Positions 1,261-64,000 of a stretch of DNA of 64,000 nt are shown one piece after another. How positions within the stretch are numbered: position 1 is the first letter of the stretch; every line of letters begins with the position of its first letter. The stretch is from Candidatus Onstottus arcticum (GTDB taxonomy: Bacteria; Acidobacteriota; Blastocatellia; UBA7656): contig JBBPIE010000006.1 in assembly GCA_038040485.1 (NCBI GenBank), positions 142,435 to 206,434 on the forward strand, written 5' to 3'. The position numbers and the translations under genes were made by a program. The notes beneath the pieces were generated by a model, which made no database searches, was not told the origin of the DNA, and was given only the letters and a program-made list of their open reading frames with translations.

Positions 1261-1633
1261 AGCCTGTCTTGTCGTCTCCTTTTGAGAACTGACCGCTGGG
1301 ATCGGAATGTTTGAGCCCGCTGATCGCGGGGGCTCGCCGCTCAAACTCAGAGTTGAAGCTTCGAGGCAGTGCGAGCCGCCCAGATTCTATACGAGCGTCA
1401 AAACGGCAGCAACCGGATTGGTACGAACTGCACGTGGGAGTCTACGAGCAGCGAGTTTGCGGCTTGAACGGCGGTGCTCGACTTTGCTGGGGCGAGCTTT
1501 GCTAGACCCCGCTTGGCAGCGCCGAGGGCACGGACTAGACTGACCGGGTCAGTTAGATCGGTTTGGCAGAGTCTATCGGGATTCAGAACTCTTTTTCCTG
1601 CAGACTCTGCGCTTCGATTCGGAGAAGGCCGTT

Positions 1634-2500
1634 ATGTTCGAGTGGAAAATCGGCGGCAGAAGCTTCTGCGTCCGCGACATCGAGAGCGACGCCGAGTTTC
1701 ACGCCATCGAAGAGATACAGAAAGAAGCCTGGGGCTTCAATGATCTCGACACGGTTCCTGCCGCCACGTTGATGGCTACCCAACACGCGGGCGGCGTCAC
1801 GCTCGGAGCTTTCGATGGCAGCACGATGATCGGGTTCGCATACGGCTTTGCGGCTTACGAAGAAGGGCAAGCGTCGATCCATTCCCATATGCTTGCGGTC
1901 CGGCCGGCGTACAGAAACTTCCAAGCCGGGTTCTATCTAAAGCTTGCCCAGCGCGAACGCGTGTTGGAAAAGAGGCTGGATGAAATCTCGTGGACCTACG
2001 ATCCGCTTCAAAGCCTGAACGCGCATTTGAACTTCGGAAAGCTCGGAGTCGTCTCGCAGCGCTACCTCGTAAACTTCTACGGCGAAGCCACTTCGAGCCC
2101 CTTGCATCAAGGCTTTGGCACGGACCGCCTTTGGGTGAGATGGCTTCTGAACTCCGAGCGAGTTAAGCGACTTGTCTCAGCCGATCCGCTCTCGCCTGCC
2201 GTTCGCGACCGTGGTCTTGATTTGCAGAGCACCGAGTTGATTGACGCGGCGCTGGTAAGACTGGAAGCTGGTCGTCCTCGGCGCGGGGATTTCGGCGTTC
2301 TGTCATCCGGTCGTTGCACGATCGAGATTCCTCACAACATCAACGCGCTCAAGGAGCGGGACCCGCAAGCGGGAGTTCTGTGGCGCGAGGCAACTCGAGA
2401 AGCGTTTCTTGCCGCGCTCGAAGCAGGCTTCGAGGTCGCGAACTTCCATCGCATCGATTCAACATCCAATCCCCGCTGGTTCTACCTGCTGACGCGCTAA
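1634..2500 (+). CDS. GNAT-superfamily acetyltransferase-like protein (predicted)
   Basis: 288-aa ORF with ATG start and SD GGAGAAGG upstream. Central block HMLAVRPAYRNFQAGFYLKLAQRE...ISWTYDPLQSLNAHLNFGKLG resembles the GNAT acetyl-CoA binding core. Family assignment is from memory only. Confidence 0.5.
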   Translation: MFEWKIGGRSFCVRDIESDAEFHAIEEIQKEAWGFNDLDTVPAATLMATQHAGGVTLGAFDGSTMIGFAYGFAAYEEGQASIHSHMLAVRPAYRNFQAGFYLKLAQRERVLEKRLDEISWTYDPLQSLNAHLNFGKLGVVSQRYLVNFYGEATSSPLHQGFGTDRLWVRWLLNSERVKRLVSADPLSPAVRDRGLDLQSTELIDAALVRLEAGRPRRGDFGVLSSGRCTIEIPHNINALKERDPQAGVLWREATREAFLAALEAGFEVANFHRIDSTSNPRWFYLLTR

Positions 2501-2546
2501 GCTGACCACAACCAACGCAAGACGCCGATTGATTCGATCGTCATCT

Positions 2547-2576
2547 TTGACTGACTTCTTTCCCCTCGGATAGAAT
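2547..2576 (+). promoter_or_regulatory. sigma70-like promoter (TTGACT - 17 nt - TAGAAT) upstream of the PQQ-repeat gene
   Basis: -35 TTGACT at 2547-2552, 17-nt spacer, -10 TAGAAT at 2571-2576, start codon at 2587. Confidence 0.4.
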
Positions 2577-2586
2577 TTCATTGCTG

Positions 2587-3822
2587 ATGACAAATCTCTT
2601 GGTTACGCGGTTGCTGTCGGTTCTTTTGTTTACCCCGCTCTTTGGTTTCGGACAGAAGCCGCTGCCGTCGACACAGCAAGTCCCAACCCAACCTACGGCT
2701 ACGAATCAATCCAAAAAAACCGGCGGCCAGCCAAGGGCGCGGGAATCATTAGCGGAAGCCGGAGCGACGTCAACGTCGAAGCTCGCTTTGCCATTCAAAC
2801 GAGCCTGGCAGCATCTCACGGGCGGCGCGACCCCGATCGCGCCCACGGTCGACGACGCGCGCATCTACCTGCCGCTCACCGGCGGCCGCGTGTCTTGCCT
2901 AGACCGGCAGACCGGCTCTTTGCTCTGGTCGAGCGAGCCGGGCGGACAGATCACCGCGCCCGCCGCAGCCGGCGACAACTCGATCTATATCGCGACTCGC
3001 AACGTCGGAGAAGACGGCACGGAAGCAGGCGGCTCGTTGCGCGCGGTGGACAAGGCTACTGGACTCACCGTGTGGGTGCGCGACTACCCGCGCGCGTTCT
3101 CGTCGACCCTCGAGCTTGCCGCAGGCCGGGTCTACGCCGGAAGCTCGGACGGCTCGTTCTATGCGCTCGAATCGAAGAACGGCGAGATCATTTGGAAGGT
3201 CGAATCCCAGGACGTCGTTCGAGGCCGCGCGCTTGTGACCGAGCAAGCCATCTATTTCGGAAGCGACGACGGAGTCTTGCGAGTCGTCGAGCACCAACGC
3301 GGCCAGCTCATCTGGAAGTATCAAACGGGTGGGAGAATCATCGGGCAGCCGGTCGCCGGCGAACGAGAACTGTATTTCGGATCGGGAGATGGGTACGTCT
3401 ATTCGCTGGAGCTCGCAACCGGCAAGCTTCGTTGGCGATCGCGCACAGGCGCCGCGGTGGAAGCGTCGCCTGTCATTGTCGGCGACCGCCTGCTTGTAGC
3501 GTCTTACGATAACTTTGTGTACGCGCTGTCGCGCGCAAGCGGCGACCGAATCTGGAAACGCCGTCTCGAAAACCGCATCACCGCCGCGCCCATAGTCGAA
3601 GGCGACGCAAACCTCGTAGCTCCCTTGCACGGTGATTATGTCGCGGTCTTCTTGAACGCCGATGGCCGTCGAGTAAACCTCTTTCAACTGGATCCCGACT
3701 TCGAGATCGTGGCTGAGCCGGTCTTTTCGCGCGACACTCTGGTGATTCCTACAAATCAGGGGTTGGTCGTTGCGACCGCCGCCAAACCGGCCGAGCCGCA
3801 AACCAGCGCGATCAAGAAATGA
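2587..3822 (+). CDS. PQQ-like beta-propeller repeat protein (BamB/YVTN-like), secreted
   Basis: ATG at 2587 gives the signal peptide MTNLLVTRLLSVLLFTPLFGFG. Repeated PQQ-type blades follow (GGRVSCLDRQTGSLLWS, GSFYALESKNGEIIWK, GVLRVVEHQRGQLIWKYQTGG, YVYSLELATGKLRWRS, FVYALSRASGDRIWKRRL). The track start at 2581 is a TTG. Confidence 0.8.
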   Translation: MTNLLVTRLLSVLLFTPLFGFGQKPLPSTQQVPTQPTATNQSKKTGGQPRARESLAEAGATSTSKLALPFKRAWQHLTGGATPIAPTVDDARIYLPLTGGRVSCLDRQTGSLLWSSEPGGQITAPAAAGDNSIYIATRNVGEDGTEAGGSLRAVDKATGLTVWVRDYPRAFSSTLELAAGRVYAGSSDGSFYALESKNGEIIWKVESQDVVRGRALVTEQAIYFGSDDGVLRVVEHQRGQLIWKYQTGGRIIGQPVAGERELYFGSGDGYVYSLELATGKLRWRSRTGAAVEASPVIVGDRLLVASYDNFVYALSRASGDRIWKRRLENRITAAPIVEGDANLVAPLHGDYVAVFLNADGRRVNLFQLDPDFEIVAEPVFSRDTLVIPTNQGLVVATAAKPAEPQTSAIKK

Positions 3823-7763: not shown

Positions 7764-8206
7764 CGTTGCTTTGGGAGCACGGCGGTTCGCGATACTCGGG
7801 CACGCTGTCAGGCCGGCATTTCCATAAAGCTGGCGGGCTCTGGTCGCGCTCAATGTCTTGTTATCAACCGCGATGAAGGGTTTGCTCCCTTACGCTGAAT
7901 TGTACATGGGCCGGGTTCGGCACCGTGATTGGGAACCGAAGCCCTGCGACCGGGGCCGCCACGTACTTCTAAAAGCTCGACAGCGACGAGATCCGGCGGT
8001 TCAGAGTCTTCAGGCGTCGCGCCTTTTAATGGTTGTGCCTCGAACGATGAAAACACGCCTGGCAGGGGCCTCAAGATCGAACAGCTCTCCCATGAAATGG
8101 CCCTAGCTTGCCTGTCCTTTTGAAACCATGAATAATTGAGGTCCGACTTGCTCTCGCGCGCCAGGACGCCTCGCACAGAGGCGCGCGGTTGTGCTTCTGT
8201 GCCAGT

Positions 8207-9013
8207 ATGATCTTACTTCGCCTCACGCTTCTTCATGCCCTGATCTTCGTGGTTGTCTGCGACCTTTTAGCTCAGACTCCGAGCCAGACAAAGCAGAATT
8301 ACCCGGCGGTGATTAAGGACTCAACCGAGCGCCGCGCTCGGGCGGAACGCGAGTGGCGGCGAATGCTCGATTCTTACGGCATTCCTCAGACACCTCCCGA
8401 TCTTTATCCGATTACTTACACGCCCCGTTCGCTGTTGGGAGTAACCGGCGGGATCAAACTGATATCGTTCAAGCCCGAGCCGGGGTCGGAGAATCTGGCG
8501 TTACGCGAAGCACTTCGGCGTTTCCTCGATCGTTGGCGCGAGATGCTGGGCGCCGAGCCGGCAGCGGTCTCGCTGCTCAGCAACGACGAATCGGGCGACA
8601 CCCAGCGCTTGACCTACAAGCAAGCCAACTACGCGTTTCCCATCGCGGGCAACGCGGGCGAGATGGTGGCGGTCTTGAGCCGCGATGGAAGGCTCCTCCA
8701 ACTCGATTCGCGTTTTATACCCGTCGTCGAGCTCCCCTCGCGGCCCTCGATCGATCGAGACACGGTAGCCAAGAAGGTAGTTGGCCGGACCTTTACCTAT
8801 TCGGACATCGCCGGCCGCGAGCAGCGAACTCAGATCGGCGGGCTCGCGGAAGTCACCGTCAAACGGCTGGTCATCCTTCCCATCGAGAAGGCCGATTCGA
8901 CCGAAGTGCATCTGGCCTGGGAGATCGTCGCGGGCAAACAGCTCTCGTGGACGATCTACATCGACGCGATCAGCGGGCAGGAGCTCAAGGTGGCTCAGAA
9001 CTTTCAAACATAG
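8207..9013 (+). CDS. hypothetical secreted protein
   Basis: ATG at 8207 gives the signal peptide MILLRLTLLHALIFVVVCDLLAQTP (track start 8189 is TTG). No recognizable domain. Confidence 0.6.
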   Translation: MILLRLTLLHALIFVVVCDLLAQTPSQTKQNYPAVIKDSTERRARAEREWRRMLDSYGIPQTPPDLYPITYTPRSLLGVTGGIKLISFKPEPGSENLALREALRRFLDRWREMLGAEPAAVSLLSNDESGDTQRLTYKQANYAFPIAGNAGEMVAVLSRDGRLLQLDSRFIPVVELPSRPSIDRDTVAKKVVGRTFTYSDIAGREQRTQIGGLAEVTVKRLVILPIEKADSTEVHLAWEIVAGKQLSWTIYIDAISGQELKVAQNFQT

Positions 9014-58735: not shown

Positions 58736-58923
58736 CGGGCTCTCGGCGGTTCCGCTTCCGCATAGCAAGGCGGCACGTCCGCTTCTACCGCGGCTCCTGA
58801 TTCAAACGTCGATGAGGTATTTGCAGGTCTAGCCTGCGTCTCCACTGTGCGGTGTCTTTCGGGAACGATATGCTATGCCGCGCAGGTGAATGCGTCAACC
58901 TGAGGCATACGGCCTCGCGCGCA

Positions 58924-59211
58924 CCGCGTAGCGGCCTCCTATCGATAGTTCGCGCGCTGGACCAATGTCGTGGACCGCGTAGCGGTGTCCTATCGATAGC
59001 ACGGTCATCAAGCGTCAACGCCTGGCCGCATAGCGGCTACCTGACCTTCGCGCTGACCGACCGGCATGCGTATGGATCCAGGTACCCGCTACGCGGCCCG
59101 CTCGCCCCGCGCACGTTCGGTCTATCGATAGGTAGCCGCTACGCGGCCCGCTCGCCCCGCGCACGTTCTGACTATCGACAGGTAGCCGCTACGCGGCCGC
59201 TTATCTCGACA
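58924..59211. repeat. composite repeat array: inverted/direct copies of CGCGTAGCGG-N5-CTATCGATAG plus 2.6 tandem 50-nt units, between the divergent acylase and radC genes
   Basis: 58924-58948 and 58975-58999 in one orientation. 59081-59130, 59131-59180 and 59181-59211 in the other. Contains the perfect 10-bp palindrome CTATCGATAG three times. Confidence 0.75.
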
Positions 59212-59227
59212 CCTCGCGCTTCCGACG

Positions 59228-59255
59228 TTGCACACCGACTGACTCGGTATATAAT
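59228..59255 (+). promoter_or_regulatory. sigma70-like promoter for radC (TTGCAC - 16 nt - TATAAT)
   Basis: -35 at 59228-59233. -10 TATAAT at 59250-59255. SD GAAGGAAGG before the ATG at 59334. Confidence 0.45.
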
Positions 59256-59333
59256 CGCCAACCGAGCGATGGCAATCGTGGGCGCATCGACCTGAGGCAA
59301 GGTCTGTGCGAGCTTCAAAAGAAGGAAGGTCGC

Positions 59334-60017
59334 ATGAGCGACAACCCAGATCACCACGAACATCGCAAACGGCTAAGAGAACGCTTTCAGCGAGGCGGCG
59401 CCGAAGGGCTTCACAACTACGAACTGCTCGAACTGCTGTTGACCTACGCAATCCCGCGAGTCGACGTCAAACCTCCAGCCAAAGCGTTACTGAAACGGTT
59501 CAAGACTCTCGGCGGTGTGCTCGACGCGAGCCAGGCTGAGCTTGAATCGGTTCGCGGACTCGGCGGGTCGTCGGCAGTTTTGATTCGACTGGTTAAGGAG
59601 CTTCTGGGCGCGTACCTCGAAGAGCAGATCCAGCACCGCGACGTTCTCTCGTCACCAGAAGCTGTGAGGGACTTCGCGCGGATGAAGCTGGCGGGGCTCC
59701 CGCACGAAGCCTTCATGGTTATCTTTCTTGATGTGAAGAACCACGTCATCGACCACGAAGTCCTGCACGAAGGAACCGTCGATCGCGCAGTTGTCTACCC
59801 GCGCCGCATCATCGAATCTGCGCTTGCTCATCACGCGGCTGGATTGATCCTGAGTCACAACCATCCAAGCGGCGACCCCGCGCCTTCACAGGAAGACAAA
59901 AGGCTAACTCGCAGCGTAGTCGAAGCTGCTCGAACCGTGGAGATCAGAGTGCTGGATCACTTGATAGTCGGAAAGGCCGGCCACTTCAGCTTTCATGAGA
60001 ATCAGTTGTTGAGTTAG
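59334..60017 (+). CDS. radC: RadC-like JAB/MPN domain protein (UPF0758)
   Basis: N-terminal HhH region (GYRERFQ-like, ELLELLLTY...PAKALLKRFKTLGGVL) and the JAMM motif HNHPSGDPAPSQED. Confidence 0.85.
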   Translation: MSDNPDHHEHRKRLRERFQRGGAEGLHNYELLELLLTYAIPRVDVKPPAKALLKRFKTLGGVLDASQAELESVRGLGGSSAVLIRLVKELLGAYLEEQIQHRDVLSSPEAVRDFARMKLAGLPHEAFMVIFLDVKNHVIDHEVLHEGTVDRAVVYPRRIIESALAHHAAGLILSHNHPSGDPAPSQEDKRLTRSVVEAARTVEIRVLDHLIVGKAGHFSFHENQLLS

Positions 60018-60075
60018 CAAGCAGAGAGGTGCAAAGCTGCCGATCAAAAGGGGAACCATGATCAGTCTGCCACGG

Positions 60076-60933
60076 CTATTCCTCGATCAAGCCGTGAGCC
60101 TTCATATAATCCCTCAGGTGCGTGGCGAAATCCTCTGCCTCATCTTCTTCGACCAATTGCTTATCGATTTTGATCTTGTGAAGAATATCCTTTGCTTTGG
60201 CGTAGGCTCGTTGATGGCTTTCTATGAGCGGACGACCTAAGAGTATGTAGAGCTTGGACAACTCGGGATGGCCTTCCACTGCAGCCGCAGTTCCGAGCAT
60301 ATTCATCGCTCTTCGTTGAATGGTCTCGGCCTTGACGTAGTCTAGTGAGACCGCTTGTAGCACTCGCCAATTGTCGTTCTTGAACGCGTGATCAAACTTC
60401 AAAGTTACCTCGTCGGTTTGAAGCGTCCAGGGACGAAGCCTCTTATGTACAAGCGTCTGTACTAACGGCCTGCTGTAAACAGCCCAAACTTCTTCGTCCG
60501 TGCGCTTCTCAGTCTCATGGGCCGCGTATTGCGATGCCACCATTCGATCGAAGATTTCACTAAGCGCTTGATCTGGATCATCCGTGATGCCCGCCAGGAC
60601 CGGGCCCGAGATAAAGCTGAGCCCCTCATCCGGCCATATCTGAGCGATGAATCCAGCGACTGTTTCGGGTGGCCGGCCCGGCGGCAACAGCGTAGGCACC
60701 AAGTCTTCCGAAAGCTTGTCGAGCGCCGATTCAAATTGTCGCAAGGACCGTTTGTAGTGTTCACCTTTAAAGTCGACAAAAGTGTTAGACAACCTCTCGA
60801 AGCGATGCTCGAATCGAGCAGCCAGATATCGCACGGATGGCGCCCAGAGAACGACACCTACATTGAGCGTCTCTCCCGTCGCCGGATCGTGAAGGTATTT
60901 GACGACACTATACGTATAGGATATGCCGTTCAT
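60076..60933 (-). CDS. DUF3037 domain protein
   Basis: N-terminus MNGISYTYSVVKYLHDPATGETLNVGVVLWAP matches the DUF3037 consensus (YSVLRYVPDxxRGEFVNIGVIL). The ATG overlaps the upstream stop (ATGA). Strong SD AAGGAGC. GC about 52%. Confidence 0.8.
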   Translation of the reverse strand: MNGISYTYSVVKYLHDPATGETLNVGVVLWAPSVRYLAARFEHRFERLSNTFVDFKGEHYKRSLRQFESALDKLSEDLVPTLLPPGRPPETVAGFIAQIWPDEGLSFISGPVLAGITDDPDQALSEIFDRMVASQYAAHETEKRTDEEVWAVYSRPLVQTLVHKRLRPWTLQTDEVTLKFDHAFKNDNWRVLQAVSLDYVKAETIQRRAMNMLGTAAAVEGHPELSKLYILLGRPLIESHQRAYAKAKDILHKIKIDKQLVEEDEAEDFATHLRDYMKAHGLIEE

Positions 60934-61760
60934 AGCAAGCTCCTTTGAAGCTCCAACTCGAATTGAGGGAGATTCATTATAACCTCAGTGATGTGCTCGC
61001 GCACTCTGGCGGCCTCGGATTGCCAAGCTCCCGGAAGAGCCGATGCTAACTGTTCAAGGCGCTCCGCGGTTAGAGCGCGCAGCCGGACAATGAGCGGCGT
61101 CCAACTTGGGGCCTTTGCTTTCAGTATCGAGTAAAACAGATGATTTGCTCCGATTCCGTGGCGTGATACCTCCCAAGGTGGAGCAAGTCCTCCAATGATC
61201 GGGAGCAAGAAACTAAAAGACCTCTCGAAGTCGAAGGCGATCAGAGATCCTGCAAGCGATGCGCAATTGGGCCTGTCCCACCGTCGATCTGGATTCTGCA
61301 CCAAGAGATCAAAGCCATAGATCAGCGTCGCCTGCTCAACTTCCTCTTGCGTCAAGAAAGCACCGGGCACGGCAGGCGTAAGTCCGCCATGCAGATATTC
61401 GCACCCGGATCCCAGACTAGGCGTCAAAGAAATACCGTATTCCGCAACAAGCGGGCTGACCGCCTGAACAAACTCGGGGCTTAAGTTGACGAGCGCCGGT
61501 GTCGGAGTAGCGACGCCGAGTTCTCTTGCCAGGAGATTCCCGAACACTTCACAAAACAAACTGGTCTCTGTGACTTCGGGGTGACCGACTGATTTGACGA
61601 CCATCAGACGATGATCCGGCGGACTTTCCGAGGTCTCCTCTTCTGAAGACGCGGACGAGTAATAGGCGCAGTCAACGACCAGCGGCCGAGTGCGGCCGAC
61701 GTCTAGCACCTTCTCAAAGCGTTGCGCTTCCCAAGTCTCAATCACTGGTGAACCTCGCAA
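60930..61760 (-). CDS. HipA-like kinase-fold protein (short, divergent catalytic loop)
   Basis: ETSLFCEVFGNLLARELGVATPTPALVNL aligns to HipA NEYYCLLLAKELGLNVPDAEIIKA. YGFDLLVQNPDRRWDRPNCA...LIAFDFERSF aligns to the HipA catalytic loop and activation-segment region (FQWLIGATDGHAKN...LTPFYDIISAF). Start TTG at 61760 or GTG at 61745, 10 nt after the hsdS stop. Confidence 0.6.
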   Translation of the reverse strand: MRGSPVIETWEAQRFEKVLDVGRTRPLVVDCAYYSSASSEEETSESPPDHRLMVVKSVGHPEVTETSLFCEVFGNLLARELGVATPTPALVNLSPEFVQAVSPLVAEYGISLTPSLGSGCEYLHGGLTPAVPGAFLTQEEVEQATLIYGFDLLVQNPDRRWDRPNCASLAGSLIAFDFERSFSFLLPIIGGLAPPWEVSRHGIGANHLFYSILKAKAPSWTPLIVRLRALTAERLEQLASALPGAWQSEAARVREHITEVIMNLPQFELELQRSLL

Positions 61761-61770
61761 ACATCAACTC

Positions 61771-63243
61771 TCACTTGCGTCGGCCCGCCCCTTTGCTGAG
61801 TCTCCGTTCTTGAAAGCGATTCGCTCTAGCGGTGGGCGGAGCCGCTGCTTCATTGCTGCGGCCTGTGCGGATGCTTTCTAGGAGAACAGATGCAGGTTCG
61901 TAGTCGCGGCCTTCGCGGCGGGCGAGTTCGGCTTCGGTCGGAACGAGTTCGCCTCGGAAGGCTTTGGCGAGGATGGATTGTGTCAGCTTATCAACGTGCG
62001 CCTGAGCCTTTCGATAACCCCCTTCAATCTGGTCGGCGAGTTTGAAGAGAGCTTCGACGCGACGGACGATTTCACTTTGTTCAGTTAGCGGTGGGAGTGA
62101 GATTCGCAGTCCTCGCACTTCTTCGCTGTTGATGTTATGCACTCCACTTGTCGAGCGTGCCGGGATTTCGATCTGGAGTCGCACATCGTAGCTGGATAGG
62201 GCAAGATTCAAATACTCCGGCAAGACCCGTGATCTGTTTGGACGAAGCCGAATCAGATAGCCCGCGTAAGCAAACCCTTTCTCCGGTTTCCTGATGAGTG
62301 CAGACTTGCCAACCAGAGATACGCTACCGTTTGACCTGATTAACAATACATCGCCTGGAACCAACCTGAGCTGCTCAAATTCCCTTTCCGGCAGCAAGGC
62401 GTACTTGACATCCGAATGGTCGATGACGCCGTCGGCGATATTGGGAATGCGCAAAACGGAAACGCCCTCTTTCTCGTAGCCACACTTCTGGGCTGTTCCA
62501 TATTTCAAAGTGTCAATAACCAAACCAACGCCAACCGACATCCAAGACTCGGGAAACTCATTCGTGGTCGATTGTCTTGCCTCGTCGAGTTGGATGAAGG
62601 CAGGTTCAGTATGCGGATTTTGCTCTCGCCAGTCAGCAGTAAGTTGGCCCGAGCAGGCCGTGGCGAGGACCGATTGACGAAAGCGTTTGAGTATCACTGG
62701 GATTCTCGCAAGTCGCTTCTGGCAGGCTTCCACTCTTGCCAATAGCTGTCTCAGCTTCGCGACGATTCGACGCTGCTCCGCGACCGACGCAAGAGGAATC
62801 TCAAGGTTGGCGAGCTTAGTGGCATTCACATTGGGGACTGCTATGCCGACAGACGACTCGGAGATGAAGGACCAATACGAATCAGACTTTAGATAGAATT
62901 CCAGATACTGGGGCAGAACGACATCCTTCAACGCCTTAAAGCGGATTAGGTAGGAGGCAAAGACGGCGTCGACCGGTGCTCGTCGAACTCGGTGACTAAT
63001 GCCGACCGAGCCTGCCCTTGAAACTAGAATGTCGTTGGGTGCTATGCGATACTTTTCTAAGTTAGCTGGTGGGGTTTGACAAAACGGGACACTGTCCCAA
63101 TCCTCAAGCCCATTTGAGATATCACTGGTCCTTAGTAGCCTGATCTTGCCAGACTTTGTCGCGCTAGATGTCCATCCGTACTGAGGCTTGGTGCACATTT
63201 CGCCTAGGGTAGCCAGAGTCCAGCCTTCCGGCAAAGTGTTCAT
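61771..63243 (-). CDS. hsdS: type I restriction-modification system specificity subunit HsdS (two target-recognition domains)
   Basis: Conserved HsdS central and C-terminal coiled regions (SVAEQRRIVAKLRQLLARVEAC, LPPLTEQSEIVRRVEALFKLADQIE) flanking two variable TRDs. The ATG overlaps the hsdM stop (ATGA). Confidence 0.9.
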   Translation of the reverse strand: MNTLPEGWTLATLGEMCTKPQYGWTSSATKSGKIRLLRTSDISNGLEDWDSVPFCQTPPANLEKYRIAPNDILVSRAGSVGISHRVRRAPVDAVFASYLIRFKALKDVVLPQYLEFYLKSDSYWSFISESSVGIAVPNVNATKLANLEIPLASVAEQRRIVAKLRQLLARVEACQKRLARIPVILKRFRQSVLATACSGQLTADWREQNPHTEPAFIQLDEARQSTTNEFPESWMSVGVGLVIDTLKYGTAQKCGYEKEGVSVLRIPNIADGVIDHSDVKYALLPEREFEQLRLVPGDVLLIRSNGSVSLVGKSALIRKPEKGFAYAGYLIRLRPNRSRVLPEYLNLALSSYDVRLQIEIPARSTSGVHNINSEEVRGLRISLPPLTEQSEIVRRVEALFKLADQIEGGYRKAQAHVDKLTQSILAKAFRGELVPTEAELARREGRDYEPASVLLESIRTGRSNEAAAPPTARANRFQERRLSKGAGRRK

Positions 63244-64000
63244 ACGGTCACGCCCTCTTCCTTGTCGATCAAGGCGATGATCTCCTTCAAGTCATCGACG
63301 ACTGCTTCAAGCTCAGTGATAGCCTCAGCGGCGAGGTCTTGAGGCTCGGGCAACTCATCGGCGTCCTCGAGCGATTCATCTTTGAGCCACGTGATGTCGA
63401 GCTTGTAGTCGCGCTCTTTGATCTTGCCGATGTGAAACTTGCGGAAGCGGCCTTCGGCACCGGTGTCGCGGCGTTTGCTCTTGCCGTTCGGGTCGTCGCC
63501 GTAACGCTTCTCGAACTCCGCGAAGTGGTCCGCTGTGAGCGGGCGTTCTTTCTTGGTTATGCCTGGCACGTTGGACCGCGCATCGAAGATCCAGACGTGT
63601 TCCGTAGGATAGCCCTTTTGAAAAAAGATCACGTTGGCTTTTACGCCTTGGCTGTACGGCGAGAACGTCCCGCGAGGCAGGCGGAGGACCGTGTGCAGAT
63701 TGCAGTCCTGCATCACGATCTCGAACACTTCACCGGCTTTGTTCTCGAACAGACAGTTGTCGGGCAGCACTACTGCGGCGCGGCCACCGGGTTTCAAGAT
63801 CGTCAGGATGTGCTGGACGAAGTTGAGCTGTTTGTTCGAAGTCTCGATGGTGAAGTCTTCGCGGTCGGGCGCCTGGTTCGCTCCTTTGGTTCCGAACGGC
63901 GGATTGGTCAAGACGACATCGAAGCGGCGGCTGTCCGGAACTTCGTAGATCGAATCGCCAAGCGCAATCTCGGGTTCAAGGCCGTGCAAGTAGAGATTCA
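63240..64000 (-). CDS. hsdM: type I restriction-modification system methyltransferase subunit HsdM; C-terminal about 250 aa, 5' end beyond the window
   Basis: N6-adenine MTase motif IV (VLTNPPFG) and the HsdM C-terminal region. The reading frame stays open to position 64000. Confidence 0.9.
   Translation of the reverse strand, partial: NLYLHGLEPEIALGDSIYEVPDSRRFDVVLTNPPFGTKGANQAPDREDFTIETSNKQLNFVQHILTILKPGGRAAVVLPDNCLFENKAGEVFEIVMQDCNLHTVLRLPRGTFSPYSQGVKANVIFFQKGYPTEHVWIFDARSNVPGITKKERPLTADHFAEFEKRYGDDPNGKSKRRDTGAEGRFRKFHIGKIKERDYKLDITWLKDESLEDADELPEPQDLAAEAITELEAVVDDLKEIIALIDKEEGVTV

Follow-up and report, generated by a model that had tools for sequence, protein, structure and literature searches.

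The contig JBBPIE010000006.1 of the acidobacterium Candidatus Onstottus arcticum, of which we analysed a stretch of 64,000 nt (hereafter the window), carries at the 3′ end of a type I restriction–modification (R-M) operon two adjacent genes encoding a HipA-like kinase and a protein with a DUF3037 domain. To judge from profile comparisons, this pair is a member of the defence candidate class PDC-M66 and a remote homologue of two gene pairs validated in Escherichia coli, HipAD (DS-6) and the pair from the Retron-Sda1 locus. It is quite probable that the two genes constitute a HipA_2-kinase/DUF3037 (PDC-M66) system in which the kinase acts as a toxin and the DUF3037 protein as its neutralizer, and in which release of the kinase by phage leads to abortive infection. 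The gene structure, the family membership, the conserved catalytic residues, the strict pairing and the facultative linkage to R-M genes come from the present analysis; the toxicity, neutralization and phage defence are extrapolated from published relatives (PMC12548924, PMC13092281).

Both PDC-M66 models of the PADLOC database are matched full-length by adjacent and co-oriented genes. The kinase matches PDC-M66A with an E-value of 2.2e-40 (136.6 bits; residues 8-273 against positions 11-267 of the 270 in the profile) and the DUF3037 protein matches PDC-M66B with an E-value of 4.2e-53 (178.6 bits; residues 5-280 against 3-278 of 281). Kinase residues are numbered here according to the 276-aa open reading frame (ORF) called mechanically from TTG 61760 (60930..61760). 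The PDC candidates of PADLOC were derived by ‘guilt-by-embedding’ in BREX, DISARM and type I R-M loci (Payne et al. 2024 preprint), and since embedding in type I R-M systems nominates such candidates, the position of the pair noticed in an initial annotation of the locus is essentially what put the pair into the catalogue. That annotation regarded a HipA-like/DUF3037 module as functionally uncharacterized, a view superseded by the PDC-M66 entry and by the validation of homologous pairs as anti-phage systems in 2025-2026 (DS-6/HipAD and the Sda1 pair); its suggestion of a toxin–antitoxin or abortive-infection module riding with the R-M system agrees with the experiments on these relatives (PMC12548924; PMC13092281).

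The first of the relatives, DS-6, was validated as an anti-phage system in the DefensePredictor study and ‘renamed HipAD’, having been found independently by Brenes & Laub 2025 (PMC13092281, Science 2026). It consists of the HipA-related kinase DS-6A (WP_000389051.1) and of DS-6B (WP_000210934.1), which combines DUF3037 with DUF1829, both encoded on the contig NZ_QOWQ01000062.1 of an E. coli isolate (PMC13092281, including supplementary tables). The catalytic mutant D139A of DS-6A loses defence, and AlphaFold3 predicts a complex of the A and B proteins, the prediction for DNA binding being weaker (PMC13092281). Our family profile of the kinase aligns with DS-6A over 198 columns (hhalign 94.8%, E 4.8e-8), and that of the DUF3037 protein aligns with DS-6B over 201 columns reaching into the C-terminal domain (hhalign 97.2%, E 3.8e-11). 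DS-6A and DS-6B themselves match PDC-M66A and PDC-M66B (6e-15 and 3.8e-16, respectively), and D139 of DS-6A (within ‘NADR’) aligns with D158 of the window kinase (within ‘NPDR’), a residue invariant in the family. The second relative, a HipA-like kinase/DUF3037 pair at the Retron-Sda1 locus labelled PDC-M66 there, protects E. coli against phage Bas51 (PMC12548924, PLoS Biol 2025). The retron reverse transcriptase and non-coding RNA (ncRNA) are dispensable for this defence, deletion of the kinase abolishes it, and deletion of the DUF3037 gene is toxic (PMC12548924).

The designation of the first gene of the pair as a HipA-like kinase stands in part when the protein is taken alone: the Pfam model HipA_2 (PF20613) does match, but only at residues 49-161 and with 25.6 bits (E 8.8e-6), just under the gathering cutoff of 27 bits. 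All 21 homologues in our kinase alignment (37-85% identity) have a HipA_2 match with E <= 0.01 (1.2e-13 in the best case), one of them also matching Pfam HipA_C, and precomputed PF20613 matches are recorded for most database relatives of the kinase. Invariant across the 21 homologues are K56, E71, G74-N75, D151, Q155-N156, D158-R159, N165 and D177-F178. As read from the alignment, K56, E71, D158, N165 and D177 are a complete protein-kinase-like active site, corresponding in this order to the β3 Lys, the αC Glu, the catalytic Asp, the metal-binding Asn and the DFG-like ‘DFE’. The loop QNPDRRWDRPN, initially described as an unusual catalytic loop, is by the same comparison a conserved family signature, ‘QNPDRRxxxPN’, with its key residues invariant in all 21 homologues. 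We considered and rejected a pseudokinase on account of this loop, because both the loop and the core kinase residues are invariant and the Asp aligns with the residue essential in DS-6A. In fold comparisons, the figures obtained were 14.7 for Helicobacter pylori CtkA, 14.1 for PI4KII-alpha, 13.6 for actin-fragmin kinase, 13.5 for Fam20, 13.1 for MavQ, 12.9 for CotH, 12.8 and 12.6 for HipA, and 11.3 for HipT, which places the protein among the atypical HipA/PI3-4K-like kinases. A sequence search of PDB chains with the family profiles of both the kinase and the DUF3037 protein gave no significant match, and no NCBIfam model matches either protein.

The identity of the partner was confirmed by a Pfam search, in which DUF3037 matches residues 8-132 with 47 bits (cutoff 22.6 bits). 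The full length of about 285 aa is conserved in the homologue alignment, and a profile search of a database of 1.84 billion cluster representatives retrieved 3,023 matches at E <= 1e-3, of which 1,616 reach E <= 1e-10 and 632 reach E <= 1e-30. Among the 150 best matches listed, nearly all are about 275-320 aa long and align over their whole length. The family is thus large, with about 3,000 clusters at 50% identity. An AlphaFold2 model of the protein (predicted local distance difference test 85, predicted template modelling score 0.51) consists of two domains, at residues ~1-135 and ~146-285, of which Pfam names the first only, with nothing credible for the C-terminal one across 21 homologues. 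The C-terminal domain opens with an alpha element, followed by three beta strands and an alternation of alpha and beta, an order that fits the restriction-endonuclease-like fold, and matches of this fold were found with scores of 8.3 for BstEII, 7.7 for BsoBI, 7.5 for PspGI, 7.2 for Can2 and 6.6 for NgoMIV; CdiA-CT toxins, XPF/ERCC1 and EcoRII scored lower. From the model we infer a putative restriction-endonuclease-like fold for this alpha/beta domain. Four residues of the protein, R144, D146, W150 and D198, are invariant. No canonical D...(D/E)xK motif is present in it, and H182 and D198, conserved in the clade of the window pair, are not kept in DS-6B; both observations point to a binding rather than catalytic role of the domain, binding appearing the likelier of the two. 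They also speak against the idea that the DUF3037 protein is itself the effector, its C-terminal domain acting as a PD-(D/E)XK-like nuclease and the kinase as a sensor or regulator. Such an arrangement is very improbable, because the toxic effect of deleting DUF3037 and the loss of defence upon deleting the kinase in the Sda1 pair are the opposite of what it predicts (PMC12548924).

The two genes are strictly paired. Our genome scan, restricted to one genome per species, yielded 27 loci from metagenome-assembled genomes (MAGs) labelled Acidobacteriota, Chthonomonadales, Bacteroidetes, Ignavibacteriae, Omnitrophota, Clostridia and Heliomicrobium, and in each of the 25 genome loci with upstream DNA a kinase homologue lies directly upstream of DUF3037 on the same strand. 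With four metagenome loci (of which three represent a single region assembled independently) and two IMG/VR viral contigs added, the arrangement holds in 31 out of 31 related loci with upstream DNA, representing at least five phyla, so that the co-conservation of the pair across genomes expected initially is indeed found. A 4-nt overlap of the two genes is seen by the ORF caller in 23 of the 25 genome loci, as well as in the viral loci, in plasmid records and in DS-6 of E. coli. The remaining two cases are start extensions made by the ORF caller: a tblastn match restores the 4-nt overlap in one locus (L009), and a short gap is more likely in the other (L026). The pairing also occurs on the RefSeq plasmids examined, where it is flanked by insertion sequence (IS) elements and lacks R-M genes. 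The genes concerned are already named ‘HipA family kinase’ and ‘DUF3037 domain-containing protein’ in RefSeq. Distant pairs with about 25% identity are found between IS630 and IS3/IS51 transposases on Pseudomonas syringae/amygdali plasmids, including one typed as conjugative (L034, NZ_LT985211.1 28081-29633). In two MAG loci (L006:9180-10004 and L019:9151-9998) an intact DUF3037 gene follows a kinase gene that is interrupted, giving two ORFs. Such decay is what a toxic kinase would lead one to expect, but an error of MAG assembly is possible.

In the window, the ORF list and direct reading of the sequence show the partial hsdM, hsdS, the kinase-like gene and the DUF3037 gene co-oriented on the minus strand (table 1). 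The layout given in the initial annotation, including ATGA at the hsdM/hsdS and kinase/DUF3037 junctions and convergent radC downstream, is therefore borne out. The first ATGA joins the hsdM stop to the hsdS start and is read as ‘GTATGAAC’, and the second joins the kinase to DUF3037 and is read as ‘CTATGAAC’; both the motif QNPDRRWDRPN of the kinase and the N-terminus YSVVKYLHDPATGETLNVGVVLW of the DUF3037 protein are found in the ORF translations. The presence of both hsdM and hsdS, connected by the overlap, identifies the system as type I R-M. HsdS matches Pfam Methylase_S in two stretches (1.5e-19), PADLOC Specificity_I (2.3e-88) and NCBIfam PRK09737 (1.7e-94), and the hsdM reading frame is open to base 63998, leaving the window at its end.

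Table 1. Features of the type I R-M/kinase/DUF3037 locus, in coordinates of the window.
Feature	Position	Strand	Remarks
hsdM, 3′ part	63240..64000	-	type I R-M methyltransferase; Pfam N6_Mtase 7.4e-34
hsdS	61771..63243	-	specificity subunit, 490 aa, two target-recognition domains
Shine-Dalgarno-like GAGG	61753..61756	-	7 nt 5′ of kinase GTG start
HipA_2-type kinase (PDC-M66A / DS-6A-like)	60930..61745	-	271 aa from GTG
Kinase K56	61593-61595	-	kinase core residue
Kinase E71		-	kinase core residue
Catalytic loop Q155-N165 (QNPDRRWDRPN)	61266..61298	-	D158 at 61287-61289, predicted catalytic Asp
Kinase D177 of ‘DFE’	61230-61232	-	kinase core residue
ATGA overlap, kinase stop/DUF3037 start	60930..60933	-	read directly in the sequence
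DUF3037 protein (PDC-M66B / DS-6B-like)	60076..60933	-	285 aa
radC	59334..60017	+	downstream of and convergent with the four-gene unit; Pfam RadC 2.6e-43

The kinase gene likely starts at GTG 61745. The alternative start, TTG 61760, was rejected: this GTG and a Shine–Dalgarno-like element, GCGAGGT, are invariant in four related loci, the TTG is replaced by TCG in one close relative (L001), and the identical NCBI protein (AABO41_08115) is 271 aa long. The equivalent of residue 6 is the first residue in all kinase homologues aligned. Instead of the 276-aa product beginning 10 nt after hsdS that was described initially, the kinase thus more likely has 271 aa and follows the hsdS stop after a gap of 25 nt, which contains its own ribosome-binding site. 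The gene is accordingly operonic without being coupled by overlap, and the translational coupling of the kinase to hsdS postulated in the initial annotation has to be abandoned. In a scan of 59300-64000, no sigma-70-like promoter was detected inside the operon, but such a scan may not suit Acidobacteriota; the result fits co-transcription with hsdMS, as weak evidence for a member of this phylum. A terminator scan of the same interval found nothing convincing 3′ of DUF3037. The kinase/DUF3037 cassette probably occupies the 3′ end of the hsdM-hsdS transcription unit and is co-transcribed with it. Beyond radC, the ~550 bp upstream of that gene (58785-59333) have 61-63% GC and no ORF of evident function; the mechanical ORFs there are rich in Arg and Ser and overlap one another on the two strands.

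The lower GC content ascribed to the pair is real (53.8%, compared with 58.4% in the whole window), but it is modest and not specific to the pair, hsdS having 53.7%. The GC content at third codon positions (GC3) is 0.57-0.59 in hsdS, the kinase and DUF3037 and 0.70-0.75 in the neighbours including hsdM (0.75 for the hsdM fragment alone). Because GC3 is low in the former genes and chromosome-like in hsdM, the data suggest that hsdS and the pair (60076-63243) were gained or exchanged as a block apart from hsdM (63240-64000). A block of this kind would also suit a pair that is merely an addiction module, stabilizing a mobile hsdS-containing segment by post-segregational killing and providing no phage defence in this organism. 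The reduced GC and GC3 across the hsdS-kinase-DUF3037 block, the plasmid copies beside IS elements, the toxin–antitoxin-like genetics of relatives in which deletion of DUF3037 is toxic (PMC12548924), and the split kinases next to intact DUF3037 genes (L006 and L019), a typical pattern of toxin–antitoxin decay, are all in keeping with this possibility. Nevertheless, it appears quite unlikely as the whole explanation, given that two independent relatives confer kinase-dependent protection against phages (PMC12548924; PMC13092281) and that the family was flagged by two defence predictors, guilt-by-embedding and DefensePredictor; moreover, addiction and defence are not mutually exclusive.

A further question concerns the relationship of the pair to the R-M system beside it. 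Type I R-M genes are its most frequent neighbour families, yet they occur in only about five of the 27 genome loci, plus the close relatives; in the other ~22 loci the pair sits among unrelated genes, such as those for valyl-tRNA synthetase (ValRS), AddAB-like helicase-nucleases, MetH and membrane proteins. The arrangements with R-M genes vary (KIN and DUF standing for the two genes of the pair and x for another gene): hsdM...hsdS-KIN-DUF in L001, hsdR-hsdS-KIN-DUF-hsdM in L010, hsdM-hsdS-x-hsdR-KIN-DUF in L014, hsdM-hsdS-SIR2-x-KIN-DUF in L020 and hsdR-x-hsdM...KIN-DUF in L024. True embedding is seen in L010 (5285-12638), a Chthonomonadaceae MAG, where the pair lies within the type I R-M operon on a single strand, and in L020, a Bacteroidetes MAG, a SIR2_2-domain protein (7800-8960; 1.8e-8) lies between hsdS and the pair, making up a small R-M/SIR2/PDC-M66 defence island. 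Linkage of the pair to R-M is hence recurrent, has arisen more than once and is optional.

Three close relatives (L029-L031), in which the kinase is 85% identical, are syntenic with the window on the radC side and share the order hsdR-(39 aa)-(HicB-like UPF0150)-hsdS-KIN-DUF-YCII-radC. Their hsdR is split into ORFs of 583 and 261-267 aa (L029:3520-6085, L030:576-3141 and L031:4538-7103), the second of which begins inside the helicase motif region (‘DLMSTGVDIPDL’). As the split is shared by three independent assemblies (ENA, Logan and JGI), it suggests a real frameshift, with the restriction subunit decaying beside an intact pair. The small UPF0150 gene, of the HicB-like antitoxin family according to a weak Pfam match, is situated just upstream of hsdS or the kinase (L028:3761-4042, L029:6235-6468 and L031:7253-7486); in L028 the pair follows this gene and hsdS is not adjacent. 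A 39-aa ORF adjoins the UPF0150 gene in L029-L031, and the two may represent a second small toxin–antitoxin cassette within the R-M locus of the close relatives. No UPF0150 gene is present in the window, in which hsdM directly overlaps hsdS.

One may ask whether the pair and the type I R-M system are functionally connected in the manner of PrrC and EcoprrI, with HsdMS(R) silencing the kinase or the DUF3037 protein sensing the state of the R-M complex, and with an anti-restriction protein of a phage as the trigger. There is the PrrC precedent itself (Payne et al. 2024 preprint), the close proximity to hsdS on the same strand, both in the window and in its close relatives (L001 and L029-L031), and the prominence of type I R-M genes, in varied arrangements and unrelated phyla (L010, L014, L020 and L024), among the neighbours of the pair. 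We nonetheless deem such a connection unlikely. R-M neighbours are missing from about 22 of the 27 genome loci, which lie among housekeeping genes, the plasmid copies are flanked by IS elements in the absence of R-M genes, the pair has stayed intact in L029-L031 where hsdR is split, and both DS-6 and the Sda1 pair defend E. coli as stand-alone two-gene cassettes (PMC13092281; PMC12548924). A narrower version, in which the cassette has become a guard coupled to type I R-M specifically in this acidobacterial lineage, firing upon R-M inhibition and using the putative restriction-endonuclease-like C-terminal domain of the DUF3037 protein as a sensor of DNA or of the R-M system, also strikes us as improbable; if true, it would constitute a new regulatory logic for HipA-type kinases.

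We thus favour the interpretation of the pair as a kinase toxin and DUF3037 neutralizer acting in phage-released abortive infection. By analogy with the relatives, the ~271-aa protein would be an active atypical Ser/Thr-type kinase with a HipA/CtkA/PI4KII-like fold, toxic by itself. Through translational coupling at the conserved ATGA overlap, the DUF3037 protein would be produced in a constant ratio to the kinase, which it would bind and neutralize, possibly also binding DNA via its nuclease-like C-terminal domain. Phage infection would then relieve the inhibition, and the freed kinase would phosphorylate an essential target, so that growth stops and the infection is aborted through arrest of the cell or of the phage. 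As the last part of the type I R-M operon, the cassette would amount to a second line of defence. Several points weigh against this interpretation. The validated E. coli system is remote (~21-24% identity), and profile methods were required to connect it with the window pair; the DUF1829 domain at the C-terminus of DS-6B (HHpred, probability 0.78) was not recovered by Pfam in the clade of the window pair; the kinase alone remains just below the HipA_2 cutoff, with the matched part covering the N-lobe and catalytic loop; the window stops inside hsdM, leaving hsdR outside the view, so that the R-M system is known here from hsdM and hsdS; and the experimental support comes from relatives, none of them acidobacterial. 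What was known before is the catalogued pair and the validation of its relatives in E. coli; what is new here is a divergent environmental member from Acidobacteriota, and the analysis confirms the association of the pair with type I R-M operons across several phyla. The invariant residues, i.e. K56, E71, D158, N165 and D177 in the kinase and R144, D146, W150 and D198 in its partner, offer themselves as targets for mutagenesis.

It is instructive to compare the window pair with the known systems it resembles. The window locus differs from HipBA and HipBST by having no HipB (a protein with the helix-turn-helix domain HTH-Xre) or HipS partner, the gene 5′ of the kinase being hsdS, and the putative neutralizing gene is located downstream of the kinase rather than upstream, as it is in HipBA. 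Canonical HipA has ~440 aa including N-terminal domains, whereas the 271-aa window kinase gives no Pfam match to these domains, and the D-x-H-x-K-N loop of HipA has a counterpart of the form N-x-D-R...N. GltX and TrpS are known targets of HipA and HipT. An identity of the pair with canonical HipBA was therefore rejected, considering the missing HipB, the reversed gene order, the short kinase and the different loop. PrrC in EcoprrI is similar to the window pair in being an abortive-infection-type effector encoded within or beside a type I R-M operon and oriented like it; however, PrrC is an anticodon nuclease embedded almost only in type I R-M systems (Payne et al. 2024 preprint), whereas the family of the window pair is linked to R-M in a minority of loci. 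No structural difference separates the window pair from PDC-M66, which is a bioinformatic candidate class rather than a mechanism. The Sda1 pair, likened here by its description, has the same two domains, acts as a stand-alone defence and displays genetics indicative of a kinase toxin neutralized by DUF3037, but it adjoins the reverse transcriptase and ncRNA of a type III-A1 retron instead of an R-M system. Finally, DS-6, cloned from the genome of an E. coli isolate, has the same gene order and the same 4-nt overlap as the pair in the window (kinase at 2415-3164 and DUF3037 at 1591-2418, minus strand) and a similar two-domain partner of ~280 aa; its kinase is somewhat shorter (249 aa compared with 271 aa), and the copy in the window belongs to the chromosome of an acidobacterium, where a type I R-M operon ends with it.

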